Sequence record: ON528735
DNA length: 64,000 nt
Reading direction: 5' to 3' (one strand)
Source of the DNA: Shigella phage ESh25
Shown here: piece after piece, positions 4,731 through 24,112 of the stretch
Layout: every line of letters starts with the position of its first letter
Numbering within the stretch: the first letter of the stretch is position 1
Translations under genes and position numbers: made by a program
Notes under the pieces: model-generated
The model's input: the letters and a program-made list of their open reading frames with translations, nothing else
Database searches by the model: none
Told to the model about the DNA's origin: nothing

Positions 4731-5411
4731 TTATTTTAATGTTACGAAAGAAGAATTGCGTGTTTCACGAATTAGAACTGATCCGTCACGATTAATGTAG
4801 TAAATTAAGCTAAACAAAGTTTGATGCGCAGACGCATGTTCAAAACTGGTTGGGCGAGATTTCCAATCTGGGGTTTCAGCAATCCATTGATAAATCCACC
4901 AAGGAACAGTGCAGAATCCTGGATTTTTTCCAATCAGCTGAAGATTCGGACTAAAGTTTTCCGGAAGAGTAAATACAGACGGCTTTTCAGATTCAATAAT
5001 CTCAGCTACAGCCTGTTCGAATTTTTCTTCAACAAAAGGAGTATCTTCAATTAAAACAGTGGTATTTTCAGGAATTTTATCCGTTTCTACTACTTCAATT
5101 TTAATGTCAGATTTAACCGGAGAATCAATCAGAAGTGCTGCCTCTGGATTGACTTCTTCATCGTCATATTTTAATCCGTCTGCAGCATCAGCAGCATCAA
5201 TTAAGTCTTTAATAGATAACCCATCAGTCTCTGGCATAGGTTCACTAGCGAGCTTCTGGAGAGCTTCTTCAATATCATTAACGATATTATCAAAAGATTT
5301 ATTCTTTTTGACCTTTATACCAAACTGTTCAGCATATTCAGCTAATTTAGCTTTAGCTTCTTTATTATCATCAAGAGCCTTCAGCTCTGCAATATAATCT
5401 TTATCTATCAT
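4731..5411 (-). CDS. inh: Inh, inhibitor of prohead protease
   Basis: 226 aa, acidic; position between hoc and uvsW as in T4. Confidence 0.75.
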   Translation of the reverse strand: MIDKDYIAELKALDDNKEAKAKLAEYAEQFGIKVKKNKSFDNIVNDIEEALQKLASEPMPETDGLSIKDLIDAADAADGLKYDDEEVNPEAALLIDSPVKSDIKIEVVETDKIPENTTVLIEDTPFVEEKFEQAVAEIIESEKPSVFTLPENFSPNLQLIGKNPGFCTVPWWIYQWIAETPDWKSRPTSFEHASAHQTLFSLIYYINRDGSVLIRETRNSSFVTLK

Positions 5412-11800: not shown

Positions 11801-12281
11801 TAAAGAAGTTTCTATTCCTAAGATGGGTCTTAAACATTATAACATTTTAAAAGATGTTAAAGGTCCTGATGAAAATTTAAAACTTCTTATTGATTCTATT
11901 TGTCCGAATTTATCACCGGCAGAAGTTGATTTCGTTTCTATTCATTTATTGGAATTTAATGGAAAGATTAAATCTCGTAAAGAAATAGATGGTTATACTT
12001 ATGATATTAATGACGTTTATGTATGTCAAAGATTGGAATTTCAATACCAAGGAAATACATTTTATTTTAGACCTCCTGGAAAATTTGAACAATTTTTAAC
12101 TGTAAGCGATATGTTATCCAAATGCTTGCTTAAGGTCAATGATGAAGTTAAAGAAATTAATTTTCTTGAGATGCCAGCATTTGTTTTAAAATGGGCAAAT
12201 GATATTTCTACAACTTTAGCAATTCCTGGCCCTAATGGTCCAATAACCGGAATTGGCAATATTATTGGATTATTTGAATGA
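11748..12281 (+). CDS. 28: Baseplate hub distal subunit gp28
   Basis: 177 aa as T4 gp28; start lies 53 nt inside the gene 27 3' end in another frame. Confidence 0.85.
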
Positions 12282-14050
12282 AAAAGCCACAAGAAATGCA
12301 AACGATGCGTAGAAAAGTTATTTCAGATAATAAACCAACACAGGAAGCGGCTAAATCCGCTTCTAATACTTTATCTGGTCTTAATGACATTTCTACAAAA
12401 TTAGATGATGCTCAAGCTGCCTCTGAATTAATAGCTCAGACTGTTGAAGAAAAATCAAATGAAATAGTTGGAGCAATTGATAACGTTGAAAGCGCAGTAA
12501 GTGATACTACTGCCGGTTCTGAGTTAATTGCCGAGACTGTTGAAATTGGCAATAATATCAATAAAGAAATAGGCGAATCACTCGGAAGCAAATTAGATAA
12601 ATTAACGAGTTTATTAGAACAAAAAATTCAAACAGCTGGAATTCAACAGACTGGAACGAGTTTAGCAGTAGTCGAAAATGCTATTCCTGTTAAAGTCGTC
12701 GAGGATGATACAGCTGAATCTGTGGGTCCTTTATTACCGGCTCCTGAAGCAGTTAATAATGATCCTGATGCTGATTTTTTCCCTACTCCTAAGCCAATTG
12801 AACCAAAACAAGAGTCTCCAGAAGAGAAGCAAAAAAGAGACGCATTTAACTTAAAATTATCTCAAGCTTTAGATAAATTAACAAAGACAGTTGATTTCGG
12901 ATTTAAGAAATCTATTTCAATTACTGATAAAATATCTAGCATGCTATTTAAGTATACCGTCAGTGCTGCTATTGAAGCTGCTAAAATGGTTGCATTGATA
13001 ATGGCTGTTGTTATTGGAATAGACCTGCTGATGGTTCATTTTAAATACTGGTCAGATAAATTTTCAAAAGCCTGGGATTTATTTAGCACTGATTTTAAAA
13101 CTTTCTCAAGCGAAACAGGAACTTGGGGCCCTTTATTACAAAGCATCTTTGAATCTATTGATGAAATTAAAAAGTTCTGGGAAGCTGGAGATTGGGGCGG
13201 ATTAACAGTAGCTATTGTTGAAGGGCTTGGAAGTGTTCTTTATAATTTAGGAGAGCTTATTCAACTTGGAATGGCTAAATTATCTGCGGCAATTCTTCGA
13301 GTTATTCCTGGTATGAAGGATACTGCTGATGAAGTAGAAGGAAGAGCACTAGAAAATTTCCAAAATACTACAAATGCTTCTCTTAGCAAAGAAGACCAAG
13401 AAAAAGTTGCAAATTATCAATATAAAAGAATGAATGGCGATCTTGGTCCAATAGCAAAAGGGCTAGACAAAATTGCGAACTGGAAAACTCGTGCATCTAA
13501 CTGGATTCGTGGTGTTGATAATAAAGAAGCACTAACGACTGATGAAGAGAGAGCAGAGGAAGAAGAAAAATTAAAGCAACTTTCTCCGGAGGAAGCTAAA
13601 ATTGCTTTAATGAAAGCTAATGAAGCTCGTGCTGCTATGAATCGTTTTGATGAATACGCTAATTCAGCTGATATGAGTAAAGACTCAACGGTTAAATCAG
13701 TTGAATCTGCCTATGAAGACCTTAAAAAACGGATGGATGACCCGGATTTAAATAATTCACCGGCAGTTAAAAAAGAACTTGCTTCTAGATTTGCTAAAAT
13801 TGATGCTACTTATCAAGAGCTCAAGAAAAATCAGCCTAATGCCAAACCTGAAACTTCTGCTAAATCACCAGAAGCGAAACAGGTCCAGGTTATTGAAAAG
13901 AACAAAGCACAGCAAGCTCCTGTTCAACAAGCATCTCCTTCGATCAATAATACTAATAATGTTATTAAGAAAAATACTGTCGTTCATAATATGACACCCG
14001 TAACGAGCACGACTGCTCCTGGTGTATTTGATGCGACTGGAGTTAATTAA
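12278..14050 (+). CDS. 29: Tail tape-measure / baseplate hub protein gp29
   Basis: 590 aa as T4 gp29; coiled-coil rich. Confidence 0.9.
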   Translation: MKKPQEMQTMRRKVISDNKPTQEAAKSASNTLSGLNDISTKLDDAQAASELIAQTVEEKSNEIVGAIDNVESAVSDTTAGSELIAETVEIGNNINKEIGESLGSKLDKLTSLLEQKIQTAGIQQTGTSLAVVENAIPVKVVEDDTAESVGPLLPAPEAVNNDPDADFFPTPKPIEPKQESPEEKQKRDAFNLKLSQALDKLTKTVDFGFKKSISITDKISSMLFKYTVSAAIEAAKMVALIMAVVIGIDLLMVHFKYWSDKFSKAWDLFSTDFKTFSSETGTWGPLLQSIFESIDEIKKFWEAGDWGGLTVAIVEGLGSVLYNLGELIQLGMAKLSAAILRVIPGMKDTADEVEGRALENFQNTTNASLSKEDQEKVANYQYKRMNGDLGPIAKGLDKIANWKTRASNWIRGVDNKEALTTDEERAEEEEKLKQLSPEEAKIALMKANEARAAMNRFDEYANSADMSKDSTVKSVESAYEDLKKRMDDPDLNNSPAVKKELASRFAKIDATYQELKKNQPNAKPETSAKSPEAKQVQVIEKNKAQQAPVQQASPSINNTNNVIKKNTVVHNMTPVTSTTAPGVFDATGVN

Positions 14051-14058
14051 GGAATAAT

Positions 14059-15153
14059 ATGGCAATTGTTAAAGAAATAACTGCTGATTTAATTAAAAAG
14101 TCCGGTGAGAAAATTTCAGCCGGACAGAGTACTAAATCAGAAGTAGGAACTAAAACATACACAGCCCAGTTTCCAACTGGGCGTGCTAGTGGTAATGACA
14201 CTACAGGGGACTTCCAGGTAACAGATCTATATAAGAATGGATTATTATTTACTGCATACAATATGTCATCTAGGGATTCTGGAAGTCTTAGAACGATGAG
14301 ATCTAACTACTCTTCTTCATCTTCGAGTATTTTACGTACAGCCAGAAACACTATCAGTAATACAGTATCAAAACTATCAAATGGACTAATATCAGATAAT
14401 AATTCAGGAACAATAAGTAAAGTTCCTGTTGCAAATATTCTTTTACCTAGATCTAAATCTGACGTCGATACGTCATCACATAGATTTAATGATGTTCAAG
14501 ATAGTCTTATTACAAAAGGTGGAGGTACTGCTACTGGCGTGTTAAGCAATATGGCTTCAACTGCAGTATTTGGAGCACTGGAAAGTATAACACAAGGTAT
14601 AATGGCTGATAATAATGAACAGATTTATACGACAGCCAGAAGTATGTATGGTGGTGCTGAGAATAGAACTAAAGTGTTCACTTGGGATTTGACTCCGCGT
14701 TCCACAGAAGATTTAATGGCTATTATTAATATCTATCAATATTTTAACTATTTTTCTTATGGTGAAACGGGTAAATCTCAATATGCTGCTGAAATAAAAG
14801 GATATCTAGATGAGTGGTATCGCTCTACTTTTATTGAGCCATTAACTCCAGAAGATGCAGTTAAAAATAAGACGTTATTTGAGAAAATGACATCGAGTTT
14901 AACTAACGTTCTTGTAGTTTCAAACCCGACAATTTGGATGGTGAAAAACTTTGGTGCAACATCTAAGTTTGATGGAAAAACGGAAATATTCGGTCCATGT
15001 CAAATCCAGAGTATCAGATTTGATAAAACACCTAATGGTAACTTTAACGGATTAGCTATTGCTCCAAATCTCCCTAGTACATTTACTCTCGAGATTACTA
15101 TGAGAGAAATTATCACGTTAAACCGTGCTTCTTTATATGCGGGGACTTTTTAA
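14059..15153 (+). CDS. 48: Baseplate tail-tube junction protein gp48
   Basis: 364 aa as T4 gp48. Confidence 0.9.
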   Translation: MAIVKEITADLIKKSGEKISAGQSTKSEVGTKTYTAQFPTGRASGNDTTGDFQVTDLYKNGLLFTAYNMSSRDSGSLRTMRSNYSSSSSSILRTARNTISNTVSKLSNGLISDNNSGTISKVPVANILLPRSKSDVDTSSHRFNDVQDSLITKGGGTATGVLSNMASTAVFGALESITQGIMADNNEQIYTTARSMYGGAENRTKVFTWDLTPRSTEDLMAIINIYQYFNYFSYGETGKSQYAAEIKGYLDEWYRSTFIEPLTPEDAVKNKTLFEKMTSSLTNVLVVSNPTIWMVKNFGATSKFDGKTEIFGPCQIQSIRFDKTPNGNFNGLAIAPNLPSTFTLEITMREIITLNRASLYAGTF

Positions 15154-16118
15154 TGTATTCTTTAGAGGAATTTAATAATCAAGCAATAAACGCAGATTTC
15201 CAACGTAATAATATGTTCAGCTGTGTTTTTGCTACAACTCCATCAACTAAAAGCTCTTCGTTGATAAGTTCAATTAGCAACTTTTCTTATAATAACTTGG
15301 GCCTAAATTCAGATTGGTTAGGATTAACTCAAGGCGATATTAATCAGGGAATTACTACGCTAATTACAGCTGGCACACAAAAACTGATAAGAAAATCAGG
15401 GGTTAGTAAATATCTTATTGGTGCCATGAGTCAACGTACAGTTCAAAGTTTATTAGGCTCATTTACAGTTGGTACATATTTAATTGACTTCTTTAACATG
15501 GCATATAACTCATCTGGATTGATGATATACTCTGTAAAAATGCCAGAGAATAGATTATCCTATGAAACTGACTGGAACTATAATTCTCCTAATATTCGTA
15601 TAACTGGGAGAGAATTAGATCCTTTGGTTATTTCATTTAGAATGGATTCAGAAGCTTGTAACTATCGTGCAATGCAAGACTGGGTTAACGCTGTTCAAGA
15701 CCCAGTAACTGGATTGCGTGCTTTGCCGCAAGATGTCGAGGCAGATATTCAGGTTAATCTTCATTCTCGCAATGGATTACCACATACTGCGGTGATGTTC
15801 ACTGGATGCATTCCAGTGTCCGTAAGCGCTCCTGAGTTATCATATGATGGAGATAACCAAATAACTACATTTGATGTTACTTTTGCGTATAGAGTGATGC
15901 AGGCTGGAGCAGTTGATAGACAAGCTGCCCTTGAATGGCTTGAATCTGCTACTATAAATGGTATTCAAAGCGTTCTCGGAAATAGTGGAGGTGTTACTGG
16001 ACTATCTAATTCGCTTTCACGACTTAGTAGATTAGGGGGAACTGCAGGAAGCATTTCAAATATTAATACTATGACAGGAATTGTCAATTCGCAAAGTAAA
16101 ATATTAGGAGCAATATAA
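15153..16118 (+). CDS. 54: Baseplate tail-tube initiator gp54
   Basis: 321 aa; start overlaps the gene 48 stop. Confidence 0.9.
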   Translation: MYSLEEFNNQAINADFQRNNMFSCVFATTPSTKSSSLISSISNFSYNNLGLNSDWLGLTQGDINQGITTLITAGTQKLIRKSGVSKYLIGAMSQRTVQSLLGSFTVGTYLIDFFNMAYNSSGLMIYSVKMPENRLSYETDWNYNSPNIRITGRELDPLVISFRMDSEACNYRAMQDWVNAVQDPVTGLRALPQDVEADIQVNLHSRNGLPHTAVMFTGCIPVSVSAPELSYDGDNQITTFDVTFAYRVMQAGAVDRQAALEWLESATINGIQSVLGNSGGVTGLSNSLSRLSRLGGTAGSISNINTMTGIVNSQSKILGAI

Positions 16119-16121
16119 CAA

Positions 16122-16146
16122 TGGGGACCTTTCGGTCCCCATATTT
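16122..16146. terminator. Terminator between gene 54 and alt.-3 (convergent)
   Basis: ggggacc-tttc-ggtcccc hairpin then T-rich tract. Confidence 0.65.
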
Positions 16147-16437
16147 TTATTTACGGAATGAAATAAAAGCAGCAACTGAAGCAACAGAGGTTTCTTCAAT
16201 ATAAACCTCAATTTTTACCGGAGCTTCTGACTCAAATTTACCTGTTACTACACCTTGGAAAATACTTTCAGTCTGTTCTGGCTTTGAAAAATTTTCAGAA
16301 GGAAAAATTCCGAACTTTTTATCGGTTCCGAAAATTTTAATAAATTCATCATAAACTGCTTCATTGAAAGCGTTATCAGCAGGAATAACGCCTTCAACTA
16401 CAAGTTCTTGACCTAAAAAGCGTAAAGAAGATTTCAT
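16147..16437 (-). CDS. Hypothetical protein (alt.-3 position)
   Basis: 96 aa; preceded by early promoter cassette and RBS. Confidence 0.6.
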   Translation of the reverse strand: MKSSLRFLGQELVVEGVIPADNAFNEAVYDEFIKIFGTDKKFGIFPSENFSKPEQTESIFQGVVTGKFESEAPVKIEVYIEETSVASVAAFISFRK

Positions 16438-16445
16438 TTTGTGTT

Positions 16446-16498
16446 CCTCATGTTATGTCAGTAAGATTACTATAACACAACACGAGGGACTTGTAAAC
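16446..16498 (-). repeat. 53-bp dispersed repeat, copy 1 (promoter-leader cassette)
   Basis: cctcatgttatgtcagtaaga(t)tactataacacaacacgagggacttgtaaac; second copy at 31770-31822 differs at one base. Confidence 0.7.
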
Positions 16499-16500
16499 TA
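16465..16500 (-). promoter_or_regulatory. Early promoter cassette upstream of alt.-3
   Basis: Minus strand GTTTAC, 18 nt, TATAGT, then leader and GAGGAA RBS; part of a 53-bp repeat. Confidence 0.6.
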
Positions 16501-18555
16501 CATTTTGAACTTTTTAGACATTCCGTTGATGTTAACCAAAGAAGCTAAGATTTGAGAAACTTCGCTTTCCTCTTCTTTTGATTCTTCTACAAGGAATTGA
16601 TTAAATCCAGCCATTGGACGAAATTCACCAGTTTCCATTAGATGGTCGCCATCATATACTGATTCTTCTAATTGTTCAGAAGGAGGAACGATTGTACCTT
16701 CGATTAGATACTTATTATAAGCAGTTTCTTTCATAAAGTAAGTACTTACTTTATTAATCTTCAGTAAAATTCCACGTGGTAGAATAACTTCAGCTTCTGA
16801 TGGAAATCCTGACAAATGACCTGGAACGATAACTTTAACTCGTTCAGCTCCTTTAATTACCATACCCACGCTAGTTTCTGCATCTTCATTAGCATATGTA
16901 GAATGACTACCCATATGCATCAAATCTTCTGCATCAACGGAACCTTCTCCTTCACCAGAAAATACTGCGCCGGAATCATCTAGAGCCATATAGTTTTTAC
17001 CATGCTCACCGAAGATATTTGGTTTAAGCGATGTGGATACGAAGTTCTTGAAATAGAACATTTTGTTTTCAATGTTATGACGCAAAGTTTTAAATGTAAC
17101 TTCTTGTCCACGGTAAAGTGTAGTTCCTGGAGGAAGAACTGAACCTTTAGCGAATGCAGAATCAAGCGTCTCGATGTGCTTAATAGCACGTTCCATATAT
17201 TCTTCACGGGTAGAATCCGGTTTACCTAAAAGGAACGAGTTCATTTCAACATATGAATCTGCGCAATAATCTTCAATTACATCAGACTCAGCCTGAGTCA
17301 ATCCTTTTGGAGTTACTTCAGTGCTTGCATATTCATACGCCTGAGCAGCGGATTCATCAATTAATTTATAAATTCCATTCATTACAAATTGAATAATAGC
17401 TGTCTTTTCATCTGGCGTAGCTTTAGAACCTTTAACTAAATCATTGATAATTTTCTTAATAACATCAAAACTATTAGAAATATTAATATCAGCAAGATCG
17501 CTTAAAATTTTATCAGTTTTATAATCAAAGAATTCTTTATTCTTTAAATATTCTTGAGAACCTTGATATGTTATATCGCTCTGCAACTTGATAGATGGAT
17601 CACGTAAACGTGCATGGGCTAATGCAATATGATTTCGGAAGCTTTCTAGTTCATAATCGTTAGATTTAAAACGAGAAGCACTTCTCATACCACCGATAGC
17701 TCCTTTGCTGAAGTTTGAACCAATCTGAATAACGCCAGAGTTCATTGGTCCTTCTGCTTTATATACCGGAACTTTAGATTCAAACTCTTGATATTTCTTA
17801 GCAGCGAAGCTATCACCCTGAAGTGAAGCATCAACAGTAGAATATTGAGCTTGTGCTGCTAATCGACGACTAATTTTAGTTTTCTGAATAACAGCTTGAT
17901 CCGTACGCTTATCATTTTCTAAAGCAATAGAAGCAGCAACTGCGACAGCTTTAGGAACAGCATTACCTGTTTTAACGTCTACATAAACATCACCGACTTT
18001 CGATTCAACTTTTGTGAATAACTCAGTTGAAATAGGAGGTACACCTGGAATGTCTTCTAAATTGGCATTTTTACGGTAAACCATAATATATGCATATTTC
18101 TTATCATAGTCCCAGATTTCCTTTAAAAGAACATATCGACCTGCTCCTTTAGTACGTACTAAACGGTCAGCAATAACTTGCATTTGACGAGCAGCGCCGT
18201 TTGTTTTACTTTTTAGTACGCGGAATAGGCATGCATCAATTTTATACTGTTTCATTGTTTGAAGAGCAGTATCAAAAACCGCATTAATGACACCAATTGG
18301 ATTTCCACCCAAGTTTTTAAGCTTAACTAACGATAATTTCTCGTTGACGCCTATCATTACGATATGCATCATTTTGTCGCCTGGCTTAACGTTTTTATTC
18401 GTATCACCGCCAGAGGTGTATGTACAAAATCGAAATCCAGGAAGAACGCTTTCTTCACCGGCTTGAATAGCAAAAATTTGAGGTATTTTATGCTTAGGAT
18501 TTAAGTTAACAACCGGCGCCGAAGCGCCGTCAAATAATTCTGTAATAAGTTCCAT
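16498..18555 (-). CDS. Alt-like ADP-ribosyltransferase, second full-length paralog
   Basis: 685 aa; N-terminus almost identical to Alt; ART triad elements LYRGQ, FVSTSL, AEVILPRG. Confidence 0.85.
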   Translation of the reverse strand: MELITELFDGASAPVVNLNPKHKIPQIFAIQAGEESVLPGFRFCTYTSGGDTNKNVKPGDKMMHIVMIGVNEKLSLVKLKNLGGNPIGVINAVFDTALQTMKQYKIDACLFRVLKSKTNGAARQMQVIADRLVRTKGAGRYVLLKEIWDYDKKYAYIMVYRKNANLEDIPGVPPISTELFTKVESKVGDVYVDVKTGNAVPKAVAVAASIALENDKRTDQAVIQKTKISRRLAAQAQYSTVDASLQGDSFAAKKYQEFESKVPVYKAEGPMNSGVIQIGSNFSKGAIGGMRSASRFKSNDYELESFRNHIALAHARLRDPSIKLQSDITYQGSQEYLKNKEFFDYKTDKILSDLADINISNSFDVIKKIINDLVKGSKATPDEKTAIIQFVMNGIYKLIDESAAQAYEYASTEVTPKGLTQAESDVIEDYCADSYVEMNSFLLGKPDSTREEYMERAIKHIETLDSAFAKGSVLPPGTTLYRGQEVTFKTLRHNIENKMFYFKNFVSTSLKPNIFGEHGKNYMALDDSGAVFSGEGEGSVDAEDLMHMGSHSTYANEDAETSVGMVIKGAERVKVIVPGHLSGFPSEAEVILPRGILLKINKVSTYFMKETAYNKYLIEGTIVPPSEQLEESVYDGDHLMETGEFRPMAGFNQFLVEESKEEESEVSQILASLVNINGMSKKFKM

Positions 18556-18558
18556 GAT

Positions 18559-20655
18559 TTATCCTTGAACGAACTTGTAAGGCATGTTTGTAATATCTAT
18601 GCAAGACGCAATAATTCCAAGAGATGATTCTACTTTCTGTTTAACGTTTGATGAAACAAATGATGCAAAGTCAACTCTGTCTTCTATTTCAATATCACCT
18701 GTCATTGCAACTACTTCACCGGTTTCCATTAAATGGTCTCCGTCATAGATTACCGATTCGGTGAGCTCTTCCGTGGTCATAACTTCAGCTTGAATGAGTT
18801 TTGTATTATTAGATGTTGTTCCGTCATTATTAGAAGCATCAGTTATTTTATTAACTTTGACCATCAATCCACGCGGTAGAATAACTTCAGCTTCTGTTGC
18901 TATTCCGAGACTTCCTGGATATACAACATTAACTTTATGAGCTCCATCAATTGCCCATCCTATTTGAACTTTAACGTATTCAGGATTTTCTTTATACGCT
19001 CTTATTTCGTTTGGATTAATAGTTATTCCTTCTTCATTTTTATCAACTGTTAATTCATTGCGAGCTTCTGGTTCTAAAAGACCAATACCAGCATGTGTGA
19101 TTCCAAAACGTCCAAAAATGATAGGAGTTAAAGAAGTAGATACAAAATTTCTGAAGTAGAACACTTTATTTTTAACTAACGCTTCATATATAGGAGCAGT
19201 CATACTTTGAGCACGATAAACTGTAATGCCTTCTGGTATACGGTCACCATTTTCAAAAGCTGAATCTAAGTTATTTATAGCAGATTCAATTTCTTTTTCA
19301 CTCATTACATCATATCGTTCTGGATTGTAGCGGCCTAAAAGAAGATTATTGATGTCAGTATATCCTGAACCGCAATATTCTCTAATGCCACGCTTTTGCG
19401 ATGGAGTATATTTAGAACCATCACGGGCAATAGTAATATCAATCATTGGACCTGCACCAATTCCGGAAAAGCTATAAATCATTCGTTTGAGGAATTTAGT
19501 TTTTGCTGCGTTCCAAGAATTTTTAGTTATTTCTTCCCAGACTTCATCTGGCTGCCCTTTACGAGTTTTATTATGTTTATCAAGCCAATTATCTTTATAT
19601 TCTTCAAAGAATTGATTAACAGCTGCTGCGTATTTCTCTAAACATTTTATTGAAGTAGTTGGTTCATTTTTAATCGCATTAAGAATTACATCTTTAATTT
19701 TTTCAGAAACTTCATTAACCTCACTTTTTGAAAAGAATTTATAGTCATAGTGAAGTTCATCTGCAGTTCCTTCGGCAATAATTTTTGCTGCCTTAGTTTT
19801 AGAAGCTAATGAATTAATTCCAAGCTTCATTTCTTCTGCTTCGGGAATTAAAGGAGCGGTAGCAGGTTTATTAAAATTAGCTGCTGTAGATTCATACTTC
19901 TGGAATAATTCACTTTCAAATCTAGAAGATTCCAATGATTGACTTTGCGCAATTGCTCTACGGGAAATTTTAACTTTAACGATTACAGCTTGGTCAGAAC
20001 GTTTATCATTTTCTTGTGCAATAGATGCTGCAATTGCCTCATTTTTAGTTACTTGAGCTCCAGTATCTTTATTGATATAAACATCACCAACCTTCGATTC
20101 AACTTTAGTAAAGAGCTCGGTACTAATTTCAGGAACTCCTGGAATGTCTTCTAATGATACGTTTTTGCGATGTATAAGAATATATGCATACTTTTTATCG
20201 TAATCCCAGAGTTCCTTAAGAAGGACGTATCTGCCACCTGAACGACTACGGATAAGTCTATCAGCAATAACTTGAATTTGTCGAGCTTGGCCAGCAGTTT
20301 TAGACTTAAGAATACGAAGCATACAAGCATCAATTTTATATTGACGCATTGTTTGCATTGCAACAGTAAAAACTGAATTGATATAATTAATTGGGCTTGG
20401 ACCAAGACCTTTTAATTTAGCAATTGAACCTTTAGCAGTTAATGTAAAAGGAACAATATGCATCATTTTATCGCCCATCTTTAAATCACGATTAGTATCA
20501 CCTCCAGATGTATAGGTACATAAACGAAAGCCTGGTTGTTCAATTGCATCATCAACATGAACTGAAAAAATTTGCGGTATTTTCTTCTTTGGATTTAAGT
20601 TTGTAATCGGAAGAGTAGTATCTTCGTCAAATAATTCTGTAATAAGTTCCATCAT
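18559..20655 (-). CDS. alt: Alt ADP-ribosyltransferase (injected internal head protein)
   Basis: 698 aa; ART R-S-E elements VYRAQ, FVSTSL, AEVILPRG; position next to gene 30 as in T4. Confidence 0.85.
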   Translation of the reverse strand: MMELITELFDEDTTLPITNLNPKKKIPQIFSVHVDDAIEQPGFRLCTYTSGGDTNRDLKMGDKMMHIVPFTLTAKGSIAKLKGLGPSPINYINSVFTVAMQTMRQYKIDACMLRILKSKTAGQARQIQVIADRLIRSRSGGRYVLLKELWDYDKKYAYILIHRKNVSLEDIPGVPEISTELFTKVESKVGDVYINKDTGAQVTKNEAIAASIAQENDKRSDQAVIVKVKISRRAIAQSQSLESSRFESELFQKYESTAANFNKPATAPLIPEAEEMKLGINSLASKTKAAKIIAEGTADELHYDYKFFSKSEVNEVSEKIKDVILNAIKNEPTTSIKCLEKYAAAVNQFFEEYKDNWLDKHNKTRKGQPDEVWEEITKNSWNAAKTKFLKRMIYSFSGIGAGPMIDITIARDGSKYTPSQKRGIREYCGSGYTDINNLLLGRYNPERYDVMSEKEIESAINNLDSAFENGDRIPEGITVYRAQSMTAPIYEALVKNKVFYFRNFVSTSLTPIIFGRFGITHAGIGLLEPEARNELTVDKNEEGITINPNEIRAYKENPEYVKVQIGWAIDGAHKVNVVYPGSLGIATEAEVILPRGLMVKVNKITDASNNDGTTSNNTKLIQAEVMTTEELTESVIYDGDHLMETGEVVAMTGDIEIEDRVDFASFVSSNVKQKVESSLGIIASCIDITNMPYKFVQG

Positions 20656-20683
20656 AGCCTCTCTAGTGTTTATTCTATTTATA

Positions 20684-20706
20684 AAATTAAAGGCCCGAAG
20701 GCCTTT
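20684..20706 (-). terminator. Hairpin/terminator upstream of alt
   Basis: aaggcc-cgaa-ggcctt hairpin with T-rich flank on the minus strand. Confidence 0.45.
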
Positions 20707-20893
20707 AGTAATCTAGTGGTAAGAGAGTACGATATATTTCAAACTTTGGTCCTTTTTCATAGGCATCAAATGTTTCTGTAAATTTATTATAAGCGTATGC
20801 ATCTACAAATTCGAGAATGACTTGTGATACAGAAGTAGAAACATCTCCACCTTCTTTTTGAGCAATGACAATTGTTTCTAAGTAAGCTTTCAT
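20705..20893 (-). CDS. Hypothetical small protein
   Basis: 62 aa ORF; start overlaps the ligase stop. Confidence 0.5.
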   Translation of the reverse strand: MKAYLETIVIAQKEGGDVSTSVSQVILEFVDAYAYNKFTETFDAYEKGPKFEIYRTLLPLDY

Positions 20894-22353
20894 AAACCAG
20901 TTACCTCATGAAAATCACCAAATACATCCTCGAATGTATTAGCTTTAGTTTTATCTTCACGTAAACGAATCGCAATCGGAAGAAATAATTTAACGTAATC
21001 AGTGCGGCCATCAGATTTTAACCAACCGTTGCATTCGCACTCTAGAATTTTTCCAATATAATAATTTTGGTTTTCCATAATGCGAGTACGGTCAAGTTCA
21101 TGTGATTTTACGCCGGCTTTGTCTTTTAAGCCTGAACCAGCATTTACCTTAATTTTTCCACACTCTGACTCAAGAATAAATCCACCCGCTTTAGTAGGGT
21201 CTTTACGGTGAGGATAAATTCCTACAATTTTTAAATCAACATCAATTACTTCTTTAAATTTATAAAGATTTTTTGAACGAGCATTTTCCCATAATCCATC
21301 GATATTTTTGAGAATAATACCTTCAAGACCTTGGTCAATATACTTTTTATAAATTACCTTAGCTTCATCTAGGTTATTTACTACCTGGTTTTCAATTAAA
21401 ATTACTTTATCATAACCTGATGTCATTTGTTCTAGTTTAGAAAAACGTACATCATATTTCAAACGAAATGCAGGAAGACCGTATATTTCTACCAACGGGA
21501 CATAATCCCAAACCTGAAACTTCATGCATTGAGCTTCTTTTTCAGAAATGGTTCCTTTTAAGGATTTATTGGCGATTCCATTAGAAGTAGTACGAGATTC
21601 CGCTACTTCGGCGAATTCTTTAGCTTTACTAATTTCAGGATAAGCATTAAAAAGAAAATCTAGGCCTTCTGGTTCCTTTTTAACTTGCTCATGGTATACC
21701 AATTCGCCATCAATTAACACACCTTCTGGATGAATCTGGCGGGCTTCAGCAGTCATTTTGATTAACTCTTCCTTAAGAAGATCTAATCCTAGATATTCAT
21801 TACCAGCTCGTGATAAAAGACGAACATCATCTAATTCATCGCCTCGGACTTCAGCAAAACACCGGGCTCCATCTGCTTTTAACTGCGCAAAGGCTGGAAA
21901 CTTGATATTCTTACTAATGCCCTTTTCATCATAAGAACTTGCCAGCATTTGAGGTTGTTCAGGAATTAAACCTGGCCAAACTTTGTTTGCAATAGATACT
22001 GAAGCACCGCATTCAAGGTCTCGCATCATCACTCGACGCAAAACTTCAACATCATCCTTTTTACCATCAGTGATATATCCAGTTAATTCCTCAATTGCAG
22101 CATTTCCAGTCAATTTCCGAGTAGCTAACGTGAATTCAATGAAATCAAGCATATCGGTAATGGTCAGCATTCCAAAACTCTGGGTAGCAATACCAGGTTT
22201 AGGCCATTTCTTGATATAATACTGTAACCCACGAGAATAAGTCAGACGATATACTCGTTTAAGCAATTCATTATCTTTATTCTTTTCAAGAATTGCTTGC
22301 TTCTGCTTAGTTGATCCAATAGATGCTATTTCATTCAGAATTTTAAGAATCAT
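20890..22353 (-). CDS. 30: ATP-dependent DNA ligase gp30
   Basis: 487 aa as T4 ligase; adenylation motif AQLKADGARC. Confidence 0.95.
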   Translation of the reverse strand: MILKILNEIASIGSTKQKQAILEKNKDNELLKRVYRLTYSRGLQYYIKKWPKPGIATQSFGMLTITDMLDFIEFTLATRKLTGNAAIEELTGYITDGKKDDVEVLRRVMMRDLECGASVSIANKVWPGLIPEQPQMLASSYDEKGISKNIKFPAFAQLKADGARCFAEVRGDELDDVRLLSRAGNEYLGLDLLKEELIKMTAEARQIHPEGVLIDGELVYHEQVKKEPEGLDFLFNAYPEISKAKEFAEVAESRTTSNGIANKSLKGTISEKEAQCMKFQVWDYVPLVEIYGLPAFRLKYDVRFSKLEQMTSGYDKVILIENQVVNNLDEAKVIYKKYIDQGLEGIILKNIDGLWENARSKNLYKFKEVIDVDLKIVGIYPHRKDPTKAGGFILESECGKIKVNAGSGLKDKAGVKSHELDRTRIMENQNYYIGKILECECNGWLKSDGRTDYVKLFLPIAIRLREDKTKANTFEDVFGDFHEVTGL

Positions 22354-22619
22354 TGTTCATCCTTCAGAGTTTGATTTACAGCTCTATTATAAATCAATTC
22401 ATCATTAAGCTCAGTTAAAGACCTATGATATGTAGTTCTAACTTTATTTCCTTGCATCCAGTGCTTGATATAAATGAAACCTTGCTCTACACATTTTTTA
22501 AAAATTCGTTCGTCTTTTTGAGCTCGGAATTCTGGATTGCATCTAAAGAATTGATTTACGTGACCGTAATCACGCGTAGTATTACCTTCATTTTCATAAA
22601 TAGTGTGAACGACAAACAT
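22350..22619 (-). CDS. Hypothetical protein (30.1 position)
   Basis: 89 aa; overlaps the gene 30 start. Confidence 0.6.
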   Translation of the reverse strand: MFVVHTIYENEGNTTRDYGHVNQFFRCNPEFRAQKDERIFKKCVEQGFIYIKHWMQGNKVRTTYHRSLTELNDELIYNRAVNQTLKDEQ

Positions 22620-23458
22620 TAGAATGCTCCTTGGAAAATATTATCACCACAAGTAGGTCTATTATACAAATACTCTATGCCACCAGGTTTAATATAGTTC
22701 CATGTCTGAAACGGATGTGTCTGATATGGATGATATAGATGATTATAAGGATTAAACCCAGGAGTTCTCCAGGTAGTGTTCCAAGGAAAAGAATCATTTT
22801 TAATCATCTTTTCAATTACATCTTTTATAGCTTTTTCACTATCAAAACTTTCTTTATTTTCCTTCGGTGAAAAAAGTTTATTTTCTACATCATTCCATGT
22901 ATAAACTCGCTGCGCAGTTTTTGGAATATTGTCACGCTCTCCTCGAGCCATCCAATAAACAGGAACATTTAATATTTCACTCGCATGATCGCAATGATGC
23001 GCGAGATCGTCAATATAACAAATTACGTTATATTTCTCTTTTGCCTTTTTGAACAACTCTTCTTTTGAAGAATCATGACCACACATCAATACTTCTGAGA
23101 AGGCACCAGGAAAAAGAGCATTCAAATTAAATTGACGATTTAGCAGAGCGTCAATAGAATCACCCAATGCTGTAACAGCTACAAAATTATAATCTTCTTT
23201 TAATTTGTTAATTACACACAGGGCATCTTTATACGGAGACAAATAGCGAATAAAATCTGAACGATTATACTTTTCGATTAATTTAACACCAAGTTCTTCA
23301 TCGCAATTAAAGAGCTTACCAGGAGAAATAAATTTTTCGTCCTGAATCATTTTTAAAATATGTTCCAACGGAAGATTATATTTTTGGGCAAAATAAGGAA
23401 GACCTGATTGCCAGCTTAAACATACACCATCAATATCAGTCAAAATAGTAGGCTTCAT
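22619..23458 (-). CDS. HAD-superfamily-like putative phosphatase/nucleotidase (30.2 position)
   Basis: 279 aa; N-terminal LTDIDGV matches HAD motif I (DxDGx). Confidence 0.65.
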   Translation of the reverse strand: MKPTILTDIDGVCLSWQSGLPYFAQKYNLPLEHILKMIQDEKFISPGKLFNCDEELGVKLIEKYNRSDFIRYLSPYKDALCVINKLKEDYNFVAVTALGDSIDALLNRQFNLNALFPGAFSEVLMCGHDSSKEELFKKAKEKYNVICYIDDLAHHCDHASEILNVPVYWMARGERDNIPKTAQRVYTWNDVENKLFSPKENKESFDSEKAIKDVIEKMIKNDSFPWNTTWRTPGFNPYNHLYHPYQTHPFQTWNYIKPGGIEYLYNRPTCGDNIFQGAF

Positions 23459-23919
23459 AGAGAGTCTCTTAATAGGTTTAACACATCAATAAATTCAGCT
23501 TCGGTTAGTATTGTATCATCTTTTGTTAGACTACTAGCCATGCTGTGCTTCAAAACTTTTCCTTTCGAGGCTTGTAATGCATCACGAAAGCCCTTGTTTT
23601 GAATCGCTGCCTCAAAATACGCATTTGTGTATAATTCTTTCCACGCTGTAGAGTATCTTGAAAACGGAACTCCGAGCCAGAAGAGGGTCCCACGGTCCTG
23701 AGCTCTAGCATAAGACCTTCCAGCTTGTTGGGCGGCAAGCCCGGATAACCCAAATACACGACGCTGCTGTTCAACATTTTTCACCTTACATCCTTGGAGG
23801 AATCCTTCGAGACCTCCAAATTGGATACCATCCATAACAAAAGGCCATTGGGCGAAATTACTTAATGCGCATGATGGCCATTTAAAATTGCTTCTAATCT
23901 CTAACTCAGACATTTTCAA
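23455..23919 (-). CDS. NADAR/YbiA-like domain protein (30.3 position)
   Basis: 154 aa; SNFAQWPF resembles the conserved NADAR (DUF1768) segment of E. coli YbiA. Confidence 0.7.
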   Translation of the reverse strand: MKMSELEIRSNFKWPSCALSNFAQWPFVMDGIQFGGLEGFLQGCKVKNVEQQRRVFGLSGLAAQQAGRSYARAQDRGTLFWLGVPFSRYSTAWKELYTNAYFEAAIQNKGFRDALQASKGKVLKHSMASSLTKDDTILTEAEFIDVLNLLRDSL

Positions 23920-24112
23920 TACTTATAATTTCAACATCAGCCCAATGACCATAGCAAGGAAGACGAAATTCAACTGGCCAGTTAGGGTCCTTTTCTAATA
24001 TAATAGACTGAACTTGTGGCTCTTCATATTCATCGGTATACGGACCTTTATACGTTACTTTATATGTGACCTTAATATACTGAATTCCAAAAATCTTATT
24101 AATTATATTCAT
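23906..24112 (-). CDS. Hypothetical protein (30.4 position)
   Basis: 68 aa ORF in the co-directional cluster. Confidence 0.55.
   Translation of the reverse strand: MNIINKIFGIQYIKVTYKVTYKGPYTDEYEEPQVQSIILEKDPNWPVEFRLPCYGHWADVEIISIENV

Follow-up and report, generated by a model that had tools for sequence, protein, structure and literature searches.

Two intact Alt-like ADP-ribosyltransferase genes in tandem in a T4-like phage share processing motifs and differ in their middle domains

We analysed a stretch of 64,000 nt (the window) from Shigella phage ESh25 (sequence record ON528735), a T4-like phage of the genus Tequatrovirus. Two adjacent genes of the window, for which we coin the names altA (upstream) and altB (downstream), both encode intact Alt-like ADP-ribosyltransferases (ARTs). 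The first is the counterpart of T4 alt at the same locus, while of the second T4 retains only fragments. We think it probable that AltA and AltB are late-made, packaged, gp21-trimmed and injected arginine mono-ADP-ribosyltransferases with different substrate ranges. The two proteins would share a common framework for delivery and processing, and the parts presumed to recognise the substrate differ. Since both the helical middle domain and the insert before the E-x-E motif are different, different, perhaps overlapping, substrate sets are most likely.

A sequence-only reading of this DNA had described two adjacent intact minus-strand open reading frames (ORFs) of 698 and 685 amino acids (aa). 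Their coordinates are confirmed, except that the start of altA is better placed at its second ATG, which gives 697 aa. altA opens with ATGATG (20650-20655, minus strand), and the second ATG is the annotated start of Alt in T4, RB51 and T2. It gives the better spacing from a GAGAGG Shine-Dalgarno sequence and fits the published cleavage site ITE-6.

Shared and divergent parts of AltA and AltB

AltA and AltB align end to end by BLASTP with 41% identity (E=1e-159). The identities of the single segments were taken from a three-way MAFFT alignment of AltA, AltB and T4 Alt, in which the overall identity of AltB is 44% with AltA and 42% with T4 Alt. The N-terminal domain (aa 1-238) is 68% identical between AltA and AltB (161/237); it is shared, as had been proposed, but the term 'near-identical' used for it was too strong. 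In the middle segment (aa 239-415) the identity is 21%. Within the ART domain it is 44% in the part with the Arg and S-T-S motifs, 13% in the insert of about 50 aa between S-T-S and E-x-E, which is unalignable, and 40% in the E-x-E region; the C-terminal tail has 42%. The middle segment and parts of the catalytic domain had been called unrelated. This stands for the middle segment, and in the catalytic domain it is true only of the insert, the rest being homologous. A hidden homology of the two middle domains was considered and rejected, with an hhalign probability of 15% and only the last 38 or so columns, which adjoin the ART domain, aligned. The conclusion holds that at the sequence level the two middle domains are unrelated, though both are predicted to be all-helical.

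The catalytic machinery appears complete in both proteins. Pfam PF03496 (ADPrib_exo_Tox) is matched with 129 bits by AltA and 71.2 bits by AltB (gathering score 23.4), and PHROG 802, the Alt family, covers residues 1-696 of AltA (E=4e-273) and 1-685 of AltB (E=9e-256). The elements Y-R-x-Q, FVSTSL and AEVILPRG, quoted earlier for both, are indeed there. The R, S-T-S and E-x-E motifs are complete and correctly ordered, with R480, S505-T-S507 and E587-x-E589 in AltA and R482, S507-T-S509 and E587-x-E589 in AltB. Among 60 representatives of the Alt family (50%-identity clusters), the arginine is kept in 57, and the S-T-S serines and the E-x-E glutamates in 57-58 each. The AlphaFold (AF2) model of AltA has a predicted local distance difference test score (pLDDT) of 83.8 and a predicted template modelling score (pTM) of 0.76; the pLDDT of the AltB model is 74. 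In both models an alpha/beta N-domain (about aa 12-195) is followed by an all-helical middle, then by an ART core that is C3-like, and last by a C-terminal tail that is disordered, so that the ART fold is predicted for both proteins. The N-domain is basic (isoelectric point, pI, 9.5) and the ART domain acidic (pI 5.0). A sequence search of solved structures gave no match for AltB and only weak CdtA/iota-toxin matches for AltA (E ~4e-4), and no Alt structure was found in the PDB copy used. NCBIfam and PADLOC searches returned zero matches.

The N-domain had been read as an element that targets Alt to the capsid. No evidence for this was found; the documented signals in T4 are the propeptide cleavages by gp21. 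AltB keeps the motifs for these, which speaks for packaging and processing and has no specific bearing on the N-domain. The Alt N-domain is found in only 69 clusters (50% identity) out of 1.8 billion representative proteins, and PF03496 is present as well in 58 of the 60 long ones. The idea that the N-domain serves in general to deliver proteins to the capsid, joined to effectors of other kinds, is rejected, as those 58 of 60 long clusters have the same ART domain. Fold searches with the N-domain gave generic alpha/beta fold matches only. The middle domain is hypervariable throughout the family, with 39 BLAST-unlinked groups among 61 representatives, in contrast to the conserved N-domain and catalytic motifs. 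In the alignment of these 61 representatives, the hypervariable columns lie between KISRR and the ART domain. A precomputed Pfam column lists PF26846 and PF03496 on full-length or near-full-length Alt homologs and PF03496 only on two N-terminally truncated clusters. PF26846 is presumably a newer model for the Alt N-terminal region; our local Pfam copy returns PF03496 alone.

Processing motifs and expression signals

Each T4 head contains about 40 copies of Alt as an internal protein (PMC9026906). The prohead protease gp21 cuts it after ITE-6 and LTE-619, which removes a 6-residue N-terminal and a 63-residue C-terminal propeptide (PMC5694885). By alignment, gp21 motifs of the form [LI]xE, identified as sequence motifs only, are found at these positions in both window proteins: ITE-6 in AltA and AltB, LTE-632 in AltA and LEE-631 in AltB. 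At each site the P1 glutamate is kept in 57 of 60 family members (at the C-terminal site it is E631 of AltB), and the P3 residue is Leu or Ile in 53/60 at the N-terminal and 49/60 at the C-terminal site. The predicted mature masses are 70.1 kDa for AltA and 69.1 kDa for AltB.

The junction of the two genes reads TAA-atc-ATG, a gap of 3 nt with both genes on the minus strand, and an AAGGA Shine-Dalgarno sequence precedes altB. Inspection of this junction gave no promoter or terminator signal comparable to that upstream of altA, where a candidate late promoter motif, TATAAATA, lies behind a terminator-like hairpin (Table 1). The call of TATAAATA is based on the established T4 late-promoter consensus. 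Taken together, the gp21 motifs, the late promoter and terminator candidates and the 3-nt spacing argue that AltB would be co-expressed late with AltA, enter the prohead and be processed there. We propose that late transcription of the pair would start at the TATAAATA promoter that precedes altA, and that altB would be translated from its own AAGGA sequence, 3 nt past the altA stop. AltA and AltB would then enter the prohead core, be trimmed to about 70 and 69 kDa and be injected with the DNA, and both would use NAD+ to mono-ADP-ribosylate arginines of host proteins. A second perfect TATAAATA is located within the altA coding sequence (19272-19279, minus strand), 717 nt upstream of altB; it could be a chance occurrence or an internal late start.

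AltB might also be made late and yet be no injected effector, acting in the producing cell late in infection or helping mainly to build the prohead, as a structural or core protein. T4 Alt, the altA ortholog, is the only one for which packaging has been demonstrated, and the N-domain, basic and with generic fold matches only, would allow for more than one role. However, both gp21 motifs of AltB stand exactly at the aligned T4 Alt sites and are conserved family-wide, and altB is co-oriented with altA, closely behind it and downstream of the same late promoter candidate, with its catalytic residues intact. We regard this alternative as improbable.

Distribution of altB, its remnant in T4 and the mosaic altA

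Positions 12278 to 24000 of the window are collinear with the T4 genes 29, 48, 54, alt.-3, (alt.-2/alt.-1), alt, alt.1, 30 (DNA ligase) and 30.1. altA and altB sit between DNA ligase/alt.1 and alt.-3/gene 54, a position identical to that of the alt locus in T4. A megablast search with 16000-21000 matched 548 phage records, 356 of them with 80% or more of the 5 kb matched at a single place, and the closest match is Phage NBEco003 with 98.0% identity. The two-gene layout is found in T2 (2094 + 2058 nt), RB51, RB14, RB68 and wV7, and the length of 685 aa and the position of altB are the same in RB51 and T2. altB is the ortholog of the second Alt-like gene of these phages and of about 400 Tequatrovirus records, with no substantive difference. 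In 401 phage records the AltB middle domain is matched at 90% identity or more, and in 397 of these at 95% or more (95-99%). A further 44 records hold relatives of this domain below 60% identity, for example 'altb' of phage JS10 with 46%. In a large protein collection clustered at 90% identity, AltB is 99% identical to the representative of a cluster with 772 members. The arrangement is not peculiar to this phage. Most of Tequatrovirus shares it, and it is known already, with annotations in hundreds of genomes; many of the matched records carry the label 'Alt-like RNA polymerase ADP-ribosyltransferase (x2)', and RefSeq labels both genes Alt-like. Duplications of alt in T4-like phages were noted already in 2006 (PMC1524935).

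T4 has a single intact alt plus the fragments alt.-1 and alt.-2, as the earlier reading had correctly stated, and neither window gene is present unchanged in T4, which keeps altB only in these fragments and has a different central cassette in alt. The alt.-1 and alt.-2 peptides align almost identically to residues 1-54 and 62-116 of AltB, i.e. to its first 117 or so codons, and the PHROGs of the fragments, 23015 and 15247, fit AltB much better than AltA. Compared with altB of the window, T4 shows a deletion of 1 nt in an A-run, which shifts the frame near codon 55, and a deletion of 1,699 bp between two copies of the 9-bp direct repeat CTAAAAAGT. The T4 counterpart of the CTAAAAAGT junction is at about 5105-5113 of the T4 locus L001. 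A probe over the T4 deletion junction found the deleted form in 91 records and the split form, with altB intact, in about 400. The two-gene state is thus common (about 400 versus 91 records) and evidently ancestral, and T4 is the derived exception. Judged from these alignments, alt.-1 and alt.-2 are the wreck of a full-length paralog, and the note in the T4 record, 'duplication of the first part of alt', understates the loss.

It might be argued from T4 and the roughly 90 other records with a frameshifted, deleted remnant that altB in the window is itself a decaying or catalytically dead duplicate. This we consider very unlikely. The ORF is full-length, R482, S507/S509 and E587/E589 are intact and PF03496 is found well above threshold. 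Compared with RB51, altB has 34 synonymous and 9 non-synonymous differences, with a ratio of non-synonymous to synonymous rates (dN/dS) of 0.07, and about 400 genomes keep the gene intact. The corresponding dN/dS is 0.14 for the middle segment of altB and 0.09 for altA. The low dN/dS together with the intact motifs indicates that altB is under purifying selection and is no pseudogene, and the conservation in the 401 records likewise speaks against a pseudogene. Purifying selection acts on altA, too.

altA is 72% identical to T4 Alt overall, but this identity is unevenly spread. Starting at 20655, altA is at least 95% identical to T4 alt in DNA down to about 19935, then 28-78% down to about 18800, and mostly at least 93%, with one bin at 83%, down to 18559. 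The middle domain of AltA has 33% aa identity to T4 and 95.9% to T2. There are 319 phage records with this T2-type middle domain at 90% identity or above, and the T4-type scores about 31% aa identity against it. On this identity profile, altA compared with T4 alt is a recombinational mosaic, and the middle/catalytic cassette is dimorphic within one genus. altB accompanies either allele: vB_EcoM_G4498 has a T4-type altA and altB, and Kha5h has a T2-type altA and altB.

Possible targets, known systems and neighbouring genes

T4 Alt (NP_049811) is an injected NAD+:arginine mono-ADP-ribosyltransferase. altA lies at the same locus and has the same motifs and gp21 sites; its N-domain is 99.6% and its C-terminal propeptide 95% identical to those of T4 Alt. 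What sets it apart is the central cassette, where the middle domains are 33% and the inserts between S-T-S and E-x-E 40% identical. AltA probably acts as the 'alteration' enzyme of RNA polymerase alpha, or as something near it. AltB shares the architecture, the motifs and the processing sites of T4 Alt and differs from it with 42% identity overall and 9% in the middle domain. T4 Alt modifies Arg265 of RNA polymerase alpha and many other proteins (PMC2988021). These targets were established for an enzyme with the T4-type cassette, and that cassette is absent from both window proteins. T4 Alt was reportedly found by Alawneh et al. in 2016 to ADP-ribosylate and inactivate the MazF toxin.

The early phage enzymes ModA and ModB were placed in the R-S-E clade of ARTs (PMC5512222). 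They have 200 and 207 aa and lack the Alt N-domain, unlike both window proteins. An assignment of either window protein to this type was rejected: the architecture differs, the suggested alignment with ModA and ModB gave no significant BLASTP similarity to either protein (E>1), and no ModA/ModB homolog was found in the window. Compared with the R-S-ExE toxins of the C3/VIP2/iota/Vis type, Alt proteins add an N-terminal extension of 415 aa (the Alt-specific and helical domains), an insert between S-T-S and E-x-E that is about 40 residues longer, and a cleavable C-terminal propeptide. The toxins are secreted, whereas Alt proteins are delivered in the phage head. In C3-like enzymes, the region preceding E-x-E sets the specificity.

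Different host targets of AltA and AltB, defence proteins among them, are a reasonable hypothesis; PADLOC, fold and literature searches found nothing on targets of either protein. In a more pointed form of it, AltB would be a second injected effector whose private helical domain steers ADP-ribosylation to a host protein untouched by T4-type Alt, for example a toxin or an immune sensor. We hold this version to be possible but rather unlikely. Much the same low expectation applies to AltB as a redundant or dosage copy, which would be packaged and active, modify what AltA modifies (Arg265 of RNA polymerase alpha and its promiscuous target set) and raise or secure the injected ART dose. The 68% identical N-domain, the identical S-T-S and E-x-E contexts and the shared processing motifs would suit such a copy. 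The many proteins modified by T4 Alt (PMC2988021) suggest that specificity may be loose, and T4 loses little without altB. However, the middle domains have no detectable homology in hhalign, yet each is strongly conserved in its own lineage. The conservation of the altB middle domain, at 90% identity or more across the 401 records and with its low dN/dS, is surprising in a segment with no role of its own, and homogenisation or loss should be more frequent for a gene kept purely for dosage.

Four points weigh against two injected transferases with different substrate ranges. We assign substrate choice in Alt to the middle domain and the insert by analogy only. T4 and the 91 records with the same deletion junction manage without altB, so that altB is dispensable, at least on laboratory hosts. 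TATAAATA does not occur in the window more often than expected by chance, and the promoter call leans on its position and on T4 precedent. The searchable literature gave no virion proteomics or biochemistry for AltB, that is, on its packaging, cleavage, injection or activity; likewise, no experimental characterisation was found there for any member of the second-Alt (altB) group or for T2 Alt.

Most knowledge of Alt comes from T4, which is atypical: its second transferase is gone and its central cassette is unlike that of this phage and of T2. If AltB is packaged and acts on substrates of its own, a wild T-even phage would bring in, together with its DNA, two ready-made enzymes that modify the host, and this would bear on host takeover, on possible counter-defence and on the use of T4 as a reference for therapeutic T4-like phages. 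Should AltB be an effector with a private target, the common T4 laboratory strain would be without a counter-defence that most wild T-even phages inject, and the dimorphism of altA (T4-type versus T2-type) would be a second axis of target switching.

Table 1. Positions of the alt genes, their domains and motifs, and nearby signals in the window (a slash marks the predicted gp21 cleavage point)
Feature	Position	Strand	Remarks
altA	18559..20652	-	positional ortholog of T4 alt, 697 aa from second ATG; ORF from first ATG reaches 20655 (698 aa)
AltA N-terminal Alt-specific domain	19939..20652	-	aa 1-238; basic (pI 9.5); begins with gp21 site MELITE/LF
Divergent central cassette of altA, 'T2-type' allele	18860..19935	-	aa ~240-598; helical middle and most of ART domain; ~1.1 kb
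AltA catalytic Arg motif YRAQ	19207..19218	-	aa 479-482, R480; motif search; Arg invariant in alignment of 61 family sequences
AltA FVSTSL	19129..19146	-	aa 503-508, S-T-S 505-507; motif search and alignment
AltA EAEVILPRG	18868..18894	-	aa 587-595, E-x-E 587/589; motif search and alignment
AltA LTE/SV	18751..18765	-	aligns with T4 LTE-619; downstream propeptide aa 633-697 of low pLDDT
altB	16498..18555	-	full-length Alt paralog, 685 aa; ortholog of RB51/RB14 'alt.-2' and T2 CDS0266; intact form of T4 alt.-1 plus alt.-2
AltB N-terminal Alt-specific domain	17842..18555	-	aa 1-238; MELITE/LF; T4 alt.-1/alt.-2 peptides align almost identically
AltB helical middle domain	17311..17841	-	aa 239-415; 21% to AltA, 9% to T4 Alt; all-helical in model
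AltB ART catalytic domain	16663..17310	-	aa 416-631; divergent insert aa 524-572
AltB YRGQ	17104-17115	-	aa 481-484; motif search
AltB FVSTSL	17026-17043	-	aa 505-510; motif search
AltB EAEVILPRG	16771-16797	-	aa 587-595; motif search
AltB LEE/SV	16657-16671	-	aligns with C-terminal gp21 site of T4 Alt
AltB predicted C-terminal propeptide	16501..16662	-	aa 632-685; disordered in model, pLDDT <50 for residues 629-685
Upstream copy of 9-bp direct repeat CTAAAAAGT	18208..18216	-	left end of the deletion that made T4 alt.-2
Downstream copy of CTAAAAAGT	16509..16517	-	right end of the 1,699-bp T4 deletion
T4-type late promoter motif TATAAATA (candidate)	20676..20683	-	perfect match, 24 nt upstream of altA start, after terminator
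Terminator-like hairpin after alt.1	20688..20707	-	8 bp stem, T-rich tail; parts ligase/alt.1 transcript from alt genes
alt.-3 (DUF5498)	16147..16437	-	downstream neighbour of altB
Early-type promoter-like site of alt.-3	16469-16497	-	sigma-70 / T4-early-like: TTTACA, 17-nt spacer, TG-extended TATAGT; overlaps altB stop
Terminator 3' of alt.-3	16121-16142	bidirectional	shared with gene 54 on opposite strand

The neighbouring gene alt.-3 has a candidate promoter of its own and a terminator, and it thus appears to be expressed apart from the alt genes. On the other side, the alt.1 homolog (20705-20893, minus strand, 62 aa) matches Pfam PF24647 'Phage blade protein' with E=2e-29.

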